DNA of 64,000 nt from Scenedesmus sp. PABB004 (lineage: Eukaryota): contig JABVCE010000023.1 of assembly GCA_014905635.1 (NCBI GenBank), positions 186,001-250,000 of the forward strand. Reading direction: 5' to 3'. Within the stretch, counting starts at the first letter, position 1. The number at the start of each line of letters is the position of its first letter. Positions 1,985 to 64,000 of the stretch are shown here, in pieces. The position numbers were made by a program, and so were the translations under genes. The notes beneath the pieces were generated by a model. The model did no database searches, was not told the DNA's origin, and saw only the letters and a program-made list of their open reading frames with translations.

Positions 1985-4649
1985 ATGCAGAACATCGGCG
2001 GCGAGAACGCGGGCGATGCCTTCTACAGGTACAAGATGCCCAAGCTCATTGCCAAGGTGCGGCGGGCCCCCCGCGGCGCGCAGGCGGGCGGCGGGGCGCC
2101 ATGCCCCTCCCTGCCGCCCGCCCCGGCGCGCTGCGGCGCCGCGCCGGCCCGGCAGCGCGGCAGCGGTGGGAGGGCGGCGCGCCCGAGCGCTGGGAGGCGG
2201 CGCAGGGGCGCCATGGGCCTCCGTCGCAGCGCGGCAGCGCCGCCCGCGTGCGGCCCACGCCGCCCGGACGGCGCGCGCAGATTGAGGGCCGCGGCAACGG
2301 CATCAAGACCAACGTCGTGAACAACGTGGACATCGCCAAGGCCCTGGAGCGGCCGCCCGAGTGTGCGTCGCCGCGGGCGGGCCGATGCGCCGGCGAGCGG
2401 AGGGCGCCGGCGCCCCCGCCCCAGCCGGGGCCCCTCGATCCCGCCCCAGCCGCGGCAGCTGCTGCAAGCACCGCGGTGCCGCCCGCCGCGCCGGCCGGCT
2501 CACGCGCCCGCTGCCGCCCGCCGCCCGCCGCTGCGCGCCGCCGCAGACATCCTCAAGTTTTACGGCTGCGAGCTCGGCGCGCAGACCAACTTCGACAAGA
2601 ACACGGGGACGTCGATCGTGAACGGCGCGCACGACCAGAAGAAGCTCGCGGAGCTGCTCGAGGGGTTCATCAAAAAGTACGTGCAGTGCTACTCGTGCGG
2701 CAACCCCGAGACGACCGTGAAGATCCGCAAGGAGTTCATCTACCTCAAGTGCAAGGCCTGCGGCTTTGTGAGCGACGTCGACATGCGGCACAAGGTCAAC
2801 ACGTTCATCCTCAAGAACCCGCCCGAGAACAAGATGTCCAAGGAGGAGAAGCGGTGCGGCGGCCGCGGCGGCGGCCGCTGCGGCGGCCGCGGCGCGCGGG
2901 CGCGGCGGCAGGGGCAGCAGGGGCGGCTGCGTGTGGCTGCGTGCGGCAGCAGGGGCGGCGACGGGCGGCAGCAGAGGCCGCGGCGGCCGCCGCGGCGGCA
3001 GCGGCTGGCGCGCGCCCGCGCCCGTGCCCACGCGCCGGCGCGCCGCGTCGCGCGCGCGCCGCGCGCAGGCTGAAGAAGGCCGAGGACGAGCGCATGCGCG
3101 ACGCGCACGAGGCGGCGGCCAAGGAGAAGAAGGAGAAGAAGGAGAAGAAGGACAAGGAGAAGAAGAAGGACAAGAAGTGAGACTGACTGACTGATGCGTT
3201 GATGCATTGGGCCACAGCCTGCCGGCTTGCGCATTGGCGCTGGGGGCGGCGCGGCCCGCCGGCAGCGGGCGGGCGGGCGGGCGGGCGGCAGCAGGCGGCG
3301 GCAGGCGGCAGCAGGCGGCAGCAGGTGGCAGACGGCGGCAGGCGGCGGCGGCGTGCTCAGCGCCGCGCCGCTCGCCCGCGCCGCGCGCAGGGACAAGAAG
3401 AAGAAGAAGGGCGAGGAGGGCGAGGAGGGCGAGGCGGAGGCCTCGGGCGAGGCCGCGGCCGGCGGCAGCGGCGACGACGGCGCCGAGGAGGAGGAGAGCG
3501 ACGACGGCGTGGTGTGGATGACCGACACCAGCGCCGAGGCGGTCGCCGCGCGCGCGGCGGAGCAGCTCACCTCGGCGACGGCGGCGATGGTCACGCAGGG
3601 CAACATCGAGGCGGAGCGCGCCGAGGCCAAGAAGCGCGCCAAGGCGGAGGCCAAGAAGAAGGCGCGGCGCGGCGCGGGGGGCGGGGCGGGGCGGGAAGGG
3701 GCAGGGCGGGCGGCGGGGCGGCGGGGCGGCGGGGCGGCGGGGCGGCGGGGCGGGGCGGGCGGGCGGCAGCGCCCCGCCCGCGGCCGCCCGCTCACGCCGC
3801 CGCGGCGCCCTCGCCCGCGCGCAGGCCGAGGAGGAGGCGCAGCGCCGCGCCGCCGAGGCGGCCGCGGCGCGCGCGGCGCTCGAGGCGGGCAACAAGCTGG
3901 AGCCGGGCGTGGCGGAGCTCGCGCTGCGCGGGCTGCTCGCCGAGGCGGGCTGGGCGTGGGCCGACGGCAGCTGCGCGCCCGCGGCGGCCGCCAAGGTCGC
4001 CGCCGGCGGGCTGGCCAAGAAGCTGGTCGTCGAGGGCGGCGTCGCGGCCAAGGCGCGCGCGCTCTACGCCGCGCTGTTCACGCCCGAGGCGCCCGCCGCG
4101 TCGCCCGACGGCGACGCCGACGCAAGCCCGCCCGACTCGCCGCGCGCGGCCAACGGCGCCGGCGGCGCGCCCAAGCTCGCGCCGGCGATCGCCACCGCGG
4201 CGGAGCTGCTCGCGCAGCTCGCGCACGACGCGCCGGGGCAGCTGGCGCAGCTGGTGGCGCTCGAGTGGCTGCTCACGGTGAGGAGCTGCGGGCGCCCACC
4301 TCGCAGCGCGCGCGGCGCGGGCGCGCGCGCACGCACGCGGCGGCAGCGCGCCGCGGCAGCAGAGCGCGCCGCCGTCCCACGCCGCGCGTGCCGCCCGCCG
4401 CGCCGCGCCGCGCAGGTGGGCGCGCCCGAGAAGCTGCCCGAGGCGGCGCACGCGCTCAAGGCGGCGTACGAGGCTGACCTGGCGGAGGAGGACATCATTG
4501 TCGCCTGGCACGCGCGCGCCGACGCGGCCAAGGTGCTCGGCGTGCCGCCGGGCGGCGCGGCCGACGTGCGCAAGGGCGTGGCCGCGCTCGTCGAGTGGCT
4601 GCAGGAGGCGGAGAGCGACAGCGAGGAGGACGACAGCGACGACGAGTGA
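1985..4649 (+). CDS. EIF5: Eukaryotic translation initiation factor 5 (7 exons)
   Basis: Spliced product [65 protein letters not shown]...KYVQCYSCGNPET...CKACG (eIF5/eIF2B zinc ribbon), Lys-rich linker, and C-terminal W2 domain (YEADLAEEDIIVAWH...VEWLQEAESDSEEDD). Intron 3662-3824 is GC-AG. Confidence 0.96.
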
Positions 4650-5227
4650 GCGGCGTCGGCGCGGGGGCTTGCAACACAACCGCGCGCACTGGTCGGGCGG
4701 CGTGTGGAGGCGCAGCGGCGCGCCCGCACGCGCGGAGCTTCGGGGCCCAGCCGCTGGCCGCGCGGCGGCGGGCGGCGACGGGGCGGGTAGGCAGGGCTTG
4801 CTGTTGGCGCGCGTAGGTTGCAGGGGCCTGGCGGTAATCGAATCGCGGCGGGCTGCGGCGACTCCACGCGGCGCGCGCGAGCAGCGGGCGGCGCCGGGTG
4901 CCGCCGGGCCGCAGCGGACCGCAGCTCCGTCGATCGGCGCAGGCTGCGCGTCGCGTGCGCGCGCGCGCGTTGGGTCCGGCTTCCGGCTTCCGCAGAAGCT
5001 CCCCACCGGCCCTTCGCCAGGCCTCCCTGCGCCTCCCCTGCGCCTCCCGCGGGGCCGCCCGCACCATTCTGAGCTCGTGAATCCCTCCCCCTATCCATCG
5101 CGCCGCGCGTACACACACCGCGCGCCCCACACACGCGCCGCGAGAGCGCTGCAGCAGCGAGCGCCGGCCCGCGCCGGAGACGCCCGACGAGCCCGCGCGC
5201 CCATCGCGTCGGACCCAGCGAGCCGCC

Positions 5228-63600: not shown

Positions 63601-64000
63601 GCGCTCCAAGCTGCCCGACAACCTCAAGCAGATGTTCAGGCGCGGCGCGCGCGCGCGCGCGGGGCGCCGCCGCCGCTGCGGCAGGGCCCGCGCCGGACTC
63701 CCGGCCCGCGCGCGAGCCCCGCCGCCGCCGCGCCCGCGTCGGCCGCCAGGCCCATCGCCATGTCGGCGCCGGACAACGGCCTCATCGCCGAGGTGCTGCT
63801 CGCGAGCGAGGGCTTTGGCGGCGCCAAGGCGCTCGCGGCCAAGCTCGTGTCGCTGTTTGCCCTCGCGGGCGAGGGCCTCTCGCGGCAGGCGCACTACGAC
63901 TGGGGCCTGCGCGCGCTCAAGACCTGCCTCGGCGCGGCGGGGCGCCTGCTGCGCCAGGTTTGTGTGTGTGTGTGTGGGGGGGGGGGGCAGGAGGGCGTGG
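54603..64000 (+). CDS. DHC1b: Cytoplasmic dynein-2 (IFT retrograde) heavy chain, 5' part (tail, linker, AAA1); continues beyond window
   Basis: [35 protein letters not shown] (dynein-2 tail), [51 protein letters not shown]-loop [56 protein letters not shown]. 33 introns counted by hand. Confidence 0.95.
58915..59030. repeat. Intronic pentanucleotide microsatellite (CCGTG)n grading into (CCGCG)n
   Basis: About 13 CCGTG units followed by about 7 CCGCG units inside a DHC1b intron. Confidence 0.9.

Follow-up and report, generated by a model that had tools for sequence, protein, structure and literature searches.

Probable orthologs of five volvocine mating-type-linked genes lie together in a 64-kb segment of the Scenedesmus sp. 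PABB004 genome

Results

We analyzed a stretch of 64,000 nucleotides of the green alga Scenedesmus sp. PABB004 (contig JABVCE010000023.1 of assembly GCA_014905635.1, positions 186,001 to 250,000 of the forward strand). This whole stretch is called the window in the following and positions are counted from its first letter. An earlier note on this DNA had recognised genes for the translation factor eIF5, for a retinoblastoma (RB)/MAT3 protein, for UNC-50 and for the dynein heavy chain DHC1b. It had also stated that MAT3, UNC50, DHC1b and EIF5Bb belong to or flank the mating-type (MT) region of volvocine algae. All four genes were recovered in one block by Pfam, PDB and homology searches, and a gene for a BASS4-like transporter, which was absent from the list of the note, turned out to belong to the same set. 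The window thus contains five probable orthologs of volvocine MT-linked genes within 62 kb, a density far above chance. The five genes and the exons of the first one are:

1985..4646, plus strand: eIF5, ortholog of volvocine EIF5Bb (Pfam, coding segments, tblastn, tree)
1985-2059, 2275-2349, 2546-2851, 3070-3177, 3341-3664, 3810-4280 and 4410-4646, plus strand: the approximately 7 exons of eIF5, edges approximate
about 21386..27673, minus strand: retinoblastoma-family gene (MAT3/RB type), about 12 coding segments (Pfam RB_A and RB_B, coding segments)
49821..51754, minus strand: BASS4-like or SBF-like (DUF4137) transporter, ortholog of Volvox MTF1436/MTM0397 (Pfam SBF_like, tree)
52412..53903, minus strand: UNC-50, about 6 short exons, ATG at 53903 (Pfam, coding segments)
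54910..64000, plus strand, continuing past the end of the window: heavy chain of dynein-2, the dynein of intraflagellar transport (IFT), DHC1b type, from the tail to AAA1, more than 20 coding segments (Pfam, PDB)

Identification of the five genes

The G+C content of the window is high throughout, 74.0 to 81.7% in all 16 intervals of 4 kb. At about 79% G+C stop codons are scarce and long open reading frames (ORFs) are found in all six frames, 211 of them with at least 150 amino acids, so that ORF length is uninformative. The Pfam scan took in every stop-to-stop ORF with 90 or more amino acids (432 ORFs, together 110,895 residues). A second scan covered 150 of the 202 ORFs of 35 to 89 amino acids; the remaining 52 lie at 50.3 to 63.9 kb, inside the BASS4, UNC-50 and DHC1b genes. 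Coding segments were taken from a codon log-odds map which had been trained on the Pfam-matched stretches. Together, the Pfam matches and the map delineate about 16-17 intron-containing genes in the 64 kb.

The eIF5 gene has its ATG exactly at position 1985. It encodes an N-terminal eIF-5_eIF-2B domain (PF01873, E = 5.8e-23) and a C-terminal W2 domain (E = 6.6e-13), and its exons are backed by tblastn searches with algal eIF5 proteins (Scenedesmus, Chlamydomonas and others). The combination of the IF2B/IF5 domain with the W2 domain and the grouping with algal eIF5 proteins identify the gene as eIF5. The closest named matches come from Scenedesmus sp. NREL 46B-D3 (91%, for an exon) and Tetradesmus obliquus (87-90%), and the volvocine proteins follow with 81-83%. 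In a tree of 29 rows the eIF5 of the window falls within the Scenedesmus/Tetradesmus clade (support 100/99), which is nested in a wider clade (100/99), sister to the Volvocales. Male and female EIF5Bb copies of Volvox are found among the homologs. The C. reinhardtii protein CHLRE_06g251600v5, which bears the UniRef name eIF5Bbm, carries the IF5 and W2 domains (PF01873 and PF02020), as does the Volvox protein EIF5Bbm. Judged by its domains, the volvocine "EIF5Bb" is a true eIF5, and the equation of the two genes made in the earlier note holds.

For the RB gene, Pfam found RB_A twice (E = 5.6e-22 at 22659-24107 and E = 6.1e-6 at 23918-25060) and RB_B once (E = 4.9e-7 at 22493-22828), all on the minus strand. 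Pocket A and pocket B thus occur in one gene (22493-25060, minus strand), which places it in the RB family. The 3′ segment at 21386-22342 and the 5′ end near 27673 would belong to the same gene. When searched against 1.84 billion representatives, the RB_A exon at 24062-24319 matched green-algal RB-like proteins including the RB-like protein of Eudorina.

The BASS4-like gene adjoins UNC-50 and gave a strong SBF_like match (E = 5.7e-33). Among its homologs are both Volvox carteri gametologs, the male MTM0397 and the female MTF1436. In a tree, all sequences concerned form one orthogroup (SH-like approximate likelihood ratio test, SH-aLRT, 100), which splits into a sphaeroplealean clade with the gene of the window (98) and a volvocalean clade with MTF1436/MTM0397 (97). 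We therefore regard the gene as the ortholog of this Volvox MT gametolog pair. Its nearest relatives in the tree are Monoraphidium and Raphidocelis (SH-aLRT 85).

A search for metagenome loci with a BASS4 exon returned two loci, both too short for synteny. One of them (L001) is 6.2 kb long with 65.8% G+C and carries at 3550-5950 a BASS4 ortholog with an exon pattern similar to that of the window; no UNC-50-like sequence was found in the 3.5 kb upstream of it. The other (L002) is a weak match.

UNC-50 was recognised by PF05216 in two exons (E = 1.3e-20 and 2.2e-11). The dynein gene on the plus strand carries the domains DHC_N1, DHC_N2 and AAA_6 (E = 4e-67 for the last). We compared two of its exons with the dynein chains in the PDB. 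The AAA1 piece scored 230.8 bits with the human dynein-2 heavy chain versus 188 with dynein-1 and at most 170.9 with axonemal chains, those of Chlamydomonas included. The linker exon scored 78.3 bits with human dynein-2 versus at most 47.5 with all other chains. As two separate exons are closest to dynein-2 among all PDB chains, the gene is of the DHC1b type and is set apart from dynein-1 and the axonemal dyneins by both exons. Position 54910 marks the first coding segment of DHC1b and is not a located start codon. Between this segment and the ATG of UNC-50 at 53903 on the minus strand there is about 1 kb, and the two genes are divergent, which agrees with the head-to-head arrangement described before.

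The orthology of eIF5 and of BASS4/MTF1436 follows from trees. For RB, UNC-50 and DHC1b it is probable from the assignment to family or subclass, together with the single-copy status in green algae which we assume for these three genes.

Linkage in Volvocales and Sphaeropleales

The MT linkage of MAT3, UNC50, DHC1b and EIF5Bb stated in the note could be traced to Supplementary Data 1 of Hamaji 2018 (PMC6123790), where the fifth gene, MTF1436, is found as well. All five are assigned there to linkage group I (MT) in Volvox. In Chlamydomonas they are assigned to chromosome 6, MAT3 as Chr. 6 (C) and EIF5Bb, UNC50, DHC1b and MTF1436 as Chr. 6 (T). MAT3 is located in the C domain of the Chlamydomonas MT, and DHC1b mutations map to the end of chromosome 6, in tight linkage with MT. 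In other papers DHC1b is given as Cre06.g250300, and Craig 2021 takes MAT3 (Cre06.g255450) and NIC7 (Cre06.g251450) as the bounds of the approximately 422-kb MT- of C. reinhardtii. From the text of the supplement figures we obtained the orders METM-EIF5Bb-WDR57-MAT3 for Gonium and SPS1-UNC50-EMTp03-EIF5Bb-PTC1 for Eudorina, and the adjacency of MID (or FUS1) and DHC1b for Yamagishiella. The Eudorina MT is reported to have no more than two gametologs, one of them UNC50.

To judge the clustering we modelled the placement of 6-8 conserved genes and took the chance that 5 of them come to lie inside a stretch of 150 gene slots; the round totals assumed were about 17,000 genes genome-wide and about 1,300 for chromosome 6. 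With these assumed totals, random placement over the whole genome gives P of about 2e-7 to 2e-6, and the linkage is therefore real. The data support the view that the block is orthologous to the volvocine MT-linked segment, and with it the deep synteny which the earlier note had proposed on the basis of four genes; the fifth gene and the collinearity with Tetradesmus strengthen this proposal.

The Tetradesmus comparison makes use of an additional marker:

18861..20493, plus strand: MYND-finger gene with zf-MYND at its end (Pfam), collinearity marker for Tetradesmus and Scenedesmus

Every named one of the 20 matches of this gene belongs to the Sphaeropleales, with 46-59% identity to the named species. 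Together with the eIF5 and BASS4 trees this places the window in a sphaeroplealean-type chlorophycean that is not near any of the named genomes compared; the Sphaeropleales are the sister order of the Volvocales. In T. obliquus the homologs of eIF5 (OEZ86_014627), MYND (OEZ86_014648) and BASS4 (OEZ86_014662) are found on one contig of 5,918,163 bp, and their order is the same as in the window when the locus tags are taken as a proxy for position. Neither the RB exon search nor cluster look-ups yielded a Tetradesmus locus tag for RB. In Scenedesmus sp. NREL the MYND homolog resides on the same 498,131-bp contig as eIF5. That the genes form a tight block, beyond sharing a chromosome, is supported less strongly than the linkage itself; it is based on the Tetradesmus collinearity and on the short-range pairings that recur in volvocines. 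We found no paper on this conservation outside the Volvocales, although subscription journals and some supplements may hold one. A Scenedesmaceae comparison from 2026 (PMC13315243) reports "very low collinearity with Volvocales".

Signs of a mating-type locus

Beyond synteny, the earlier note had raised the possibility of an undescribed MT locus nearby, adding as a caveat that no MID gene (RWP-RK) was visible. None of the 432 ORFs of at least 90 amino acids and none of the 150 shorter ORFs scanned matches the RWP-RK domain (PF02042). The motif RWPxRK is absent from all six frames; there is one spurious RWPPRR antisense to DHC1b. Within the 64 kb these domain and motif scans thus came up empty for the sex-limited MID gene that a volvocine-type MT would have on one haplotype. 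The caveat was justified, the suggested locus is without support in the window, and an MT role for this block is unproven. No FUS1 or MTD1 was recognised in the window either, neither of them having been searched for by sequence.

A gene next to eIF5 was considered as a candidate for FUS1:

5255..8246, plus strand: Big_9/cadherin-like gene, adjoining eIF5 (Pfam Big_9, E = 2e-9)

It encodes a single bacterial-immunoglobulin (Ig)/cadherin-like domain followed by disintegrin-like Cys-rich modules, and its Atlas matches are only low-scoring (0.76) bacterial Ig/cadherin-like clusters. FUS1 is a protein of multi-Ig architecture. On architecture only, one Ig-like domain with disintegrin modules versus several Ig domains, we set the FUS1 identity of this gene aside.

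Accumulation of repeats and transposable elements (TEs) together with lowered gene density, as in a volvocine-type MT, is not seen in the window. No TE-type Pfam domain was found in the ORFs of the two scans, and no tRNA and no Rfam family in the 64 kb. The only repeats of note are two intragenic macrosatellite arrays. The description of the block as compact, TE-free and extremely GC-rich therefore stands with regard to TE domains and composition, with the correction that the block is not free of repeats, since arrays of 672-bp and approximately 905-bp units are present.

Other genes and repeats

The remaining genes of the window are:

9486..11156, plus strand: single-exon gene of 557 amino acids with strong coding signal and a G+C content at third codon positions of 0.98 (coding map)
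11854..16077, minus strand: sulfate-binding-protein gene, multi-exon (Pfam SBP_bac_11, E = 2.7e-10)
17295..18496, plus strand: ribosomal protein L23a (uL23) (Pfam Ribosomal_L23eN and Ribosomal_L23, coding segments)
about 29024..32869, minus strand: Cys-rich gene with an array of 672-bp units at 30072-32760 (4 copies, 97-100% identical)
about 33826..41132, minus strand: Ala/Gln-rich coiled-coil gene with an array of approximately 905-bp units at 35275-39300 (4-5 units)
42930..47807, plus strand: large low-complexity gene without Pfam family (coding map)
48140..49708, minus strand: PAN/Apple and ephrin-receptor-like Cys-rich gene (Pfam)

The gene for ribosomal protein L23a (RPL23a) is flanked by the sulfate-binding-protein gene on one side and by the MYND gene on the other. 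The closest PDB matches of the sulfate-binding-protein gene are the bacterial sulfate-binding proteins 1sbp and 5um2; its product probably serves a plastid sulfate ABC transporter as the binding subunit. The single-exon gene has no Pfam family and no usable Atlas match. The PAN/Apple gene is the third extracellular adhesion-like gene of the window.

Each 672-bp unit encodes, on the minus strand, a Cys-rich, secreted-looking module without Pfam match. The approximately 905-bp units are 99-100% identical over most of the unit, and the same coiled-coil gene contains three further units of approximately 645 bp at 39038-40500. The strongest strand skew of the window is seen at 36-40 kb (GC skew -0.16, AT skew -0.26). 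Not every spacing of the approximately 905-bp units (901, 905 and 906 bp) is divisible by 3, so that introns or an assembly collapse are possible in this array. Tandem Repeats Finder, with a longest period of 500, yielded one short array only.

Discussion

The five linked genes serve housekeeping functions: eIF5 acts in translation start, RB in the control of cell cycle and cell size, the BASS4-like protein as a transporter, UNC-50 in Golgi trafficking and dynein-2 in IFT. We consider it likely that the window represents a stretch of ordinary, gene-dense nuclear DNA of the sphaeroplealean type which has kept, by descent, an ancestral chlorophycean neighbourhood, and that this neighbourhood came to lie around the volvocine MT or was absorbed into it. 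Sphaeropleales and Volvocales would have inherited the neighbourhood from an ancestor common to both, and the volvocine mating-type locus would later have expanded within or around it. The linkage of the five genes would then be ancestral and would reflect retained ancestry, not shared function, and the segment itself would be autosomal-like and recombining.

Several observations weigh against common descent of the neighbourhood. For RB, UNC-50 and DHC1b the probable orthology is based on family assignment and the assumed single-copy status. The genes shared with volvocines are just 5 of about 16-17. With the same assumed gene totals as above, P rises to 0.004-0.03 on the assumption that chromosomes keep their gene content while the order of the genes is scrambled. 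Of the five shared genes, the Tetradesmus locus tags cover eIF5 and BASS4, together with the marker MYND. The MYND gene has no volvocine match at E <= 0.001 among its 20 matches, and no volvocine position was found for the orthologs of RPL23a and of the sulfate-binding protein. For RPL23a and UNC50 we did not find gene-id positions on Chlamydomonas chromosome 6 in the literature; of the genes concerned, the supplements of PMC12319295 list MAT3 only. Finally gene order varies between volvocines. UNC50 and MT are unlinked in Gonium (38 recombinants out of 77), and Hamaji 2018 (PMC6123790) puts DHC1b and MTF1436 of this alga on other scaffolds.

It could also be that the block is itself part or the immediate flank of a real MT or sex-determining region homologous to the volvocine MT, with sex-limited genes just outside the window or on the other haplotype. 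In volvocines sex-limited genes adjoin the very same genes, MID/FUS1 being found by DHC1b in Yamagishiella and by SPS1-UNC50 in Eudorina, and the window does contain three Cys-rich adhesion-like genes and two young tandem arrays. Against this stand the failure to find an RWP-RK domain or motif in any frame scanned, and the character of the segment, which is gene-dense, without TE domain and of uniform G+C content (74-82%). We think that such a role is unlikely. It is worth testing because the report on the phased UTEX 3031 genome describes the Scenedesmus-type sex locus as one that could not be identified (bioRxiv 10.1101/2022.11.30.518549). Rather unlikely, too, is the wider proposal that eIF5Bb-MAT3-MTF1436-UNC50-DHC1b marks an ancestral mating-type chromosome region which predates the split of Sphaeropleales and Volvocales. 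The sphaeroplealean sex locus would in this case be close by, beyond DHC1b or eIF5 or on an alternative haplotype.

The divergent arrangement of UNC-50 and DHC1b with about 1 kb in between might suggest that the linkage is held by selection for co-regulation, for example by a bidirectional promoter of this pair or by a regulon for cell cycle and cilium. However, the pair can be separated, since in Eudorina UNC50 is found between SPS1 and EMTp03 and not beside DHC1b, and the two genes do not share a scaffold in Gonium. We also know of no common pathway for the five genes, and we hold selection of this kind to be very unlikely. That the five genes are together by chance is extremely improbable in view of the genome-wide probability given above and of the independent linkage of three genes of the window in Tetradesmus and two in Scenedesmus sp. 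NREL, even if the pattern was singled out in the earlier note and some look-elsewhere effect has to be allowed for.

The volvocine MT loci are a model for the evolution of sex chromosomes, and comparisons have so far been confined to the Volvocales. With a block of MT-linked orthologs in the sister order, the ancestral arrangement can be viewed from an outgroup; an example is RB/MAT3, which is near eIF5Bb as in Gonium. The block also points to a definite chromosomal site at which the Scenedesmus-type sex locus could be sought.

Comparison with known mating-type regions

The MT of Volvox carteri on linkage group I holds the same five genes as the window, namely MAT3, EIF5Bb, MTF1436/MTM0397, UNC50 and DHC1b. 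The Volvox MT is reportedly larger than 1 Mb, repeat-rich, non-recombining and dimorphic. In the window, by contrast, the five genes occupy 62 kb in which no TE domain and no sex-limited gene was recognised.

On chromosome 6 of C. reinhardtii we find the orthologs g250300 (DHC1b), g251600 (EIF5Bb) and g255450 (MAT3), with UNC50 and the MTF1436 homolog on the T side. In this alga the rearranged domain lies between the T-side genes and MAT3, whereas in the window RB is placed between eIF5 and the group BASS4-UNC50-DHC1b. Here RB is 17 kb from eIF5, and BASS4-UNC50-DHC1b follow another 22 kb on. The nearness of RB and eIF5 is closer to EIF5Bb-WDR57-MAT3 of Gonium than to the arrangement in C. reinhardtii.

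Pairings over short range are also seen in Gonium (EIF5Bb-WDR57-MAT3), in Eudorina (UNC50-EMTp03-EIF5Bb) and in Yamagishiella (DHC1b beside MID/FUS1). Pfam gave no match in the window for SPS1, WDR57, PTC1 and METM, their neighbours in these algae. The MT scaffold of Gonium lacks UNC50, DHC1b and MTF1436, whereas in the window they are linked with eIF5 and RB.

Within the Sphaeropleales, T. obliquus shows the order eIF5-MYND-BASS4 as in the window, with proteins that are 50-87% identical to those of the window; the markers span about 35 locus tags there versus about 13 genes here.

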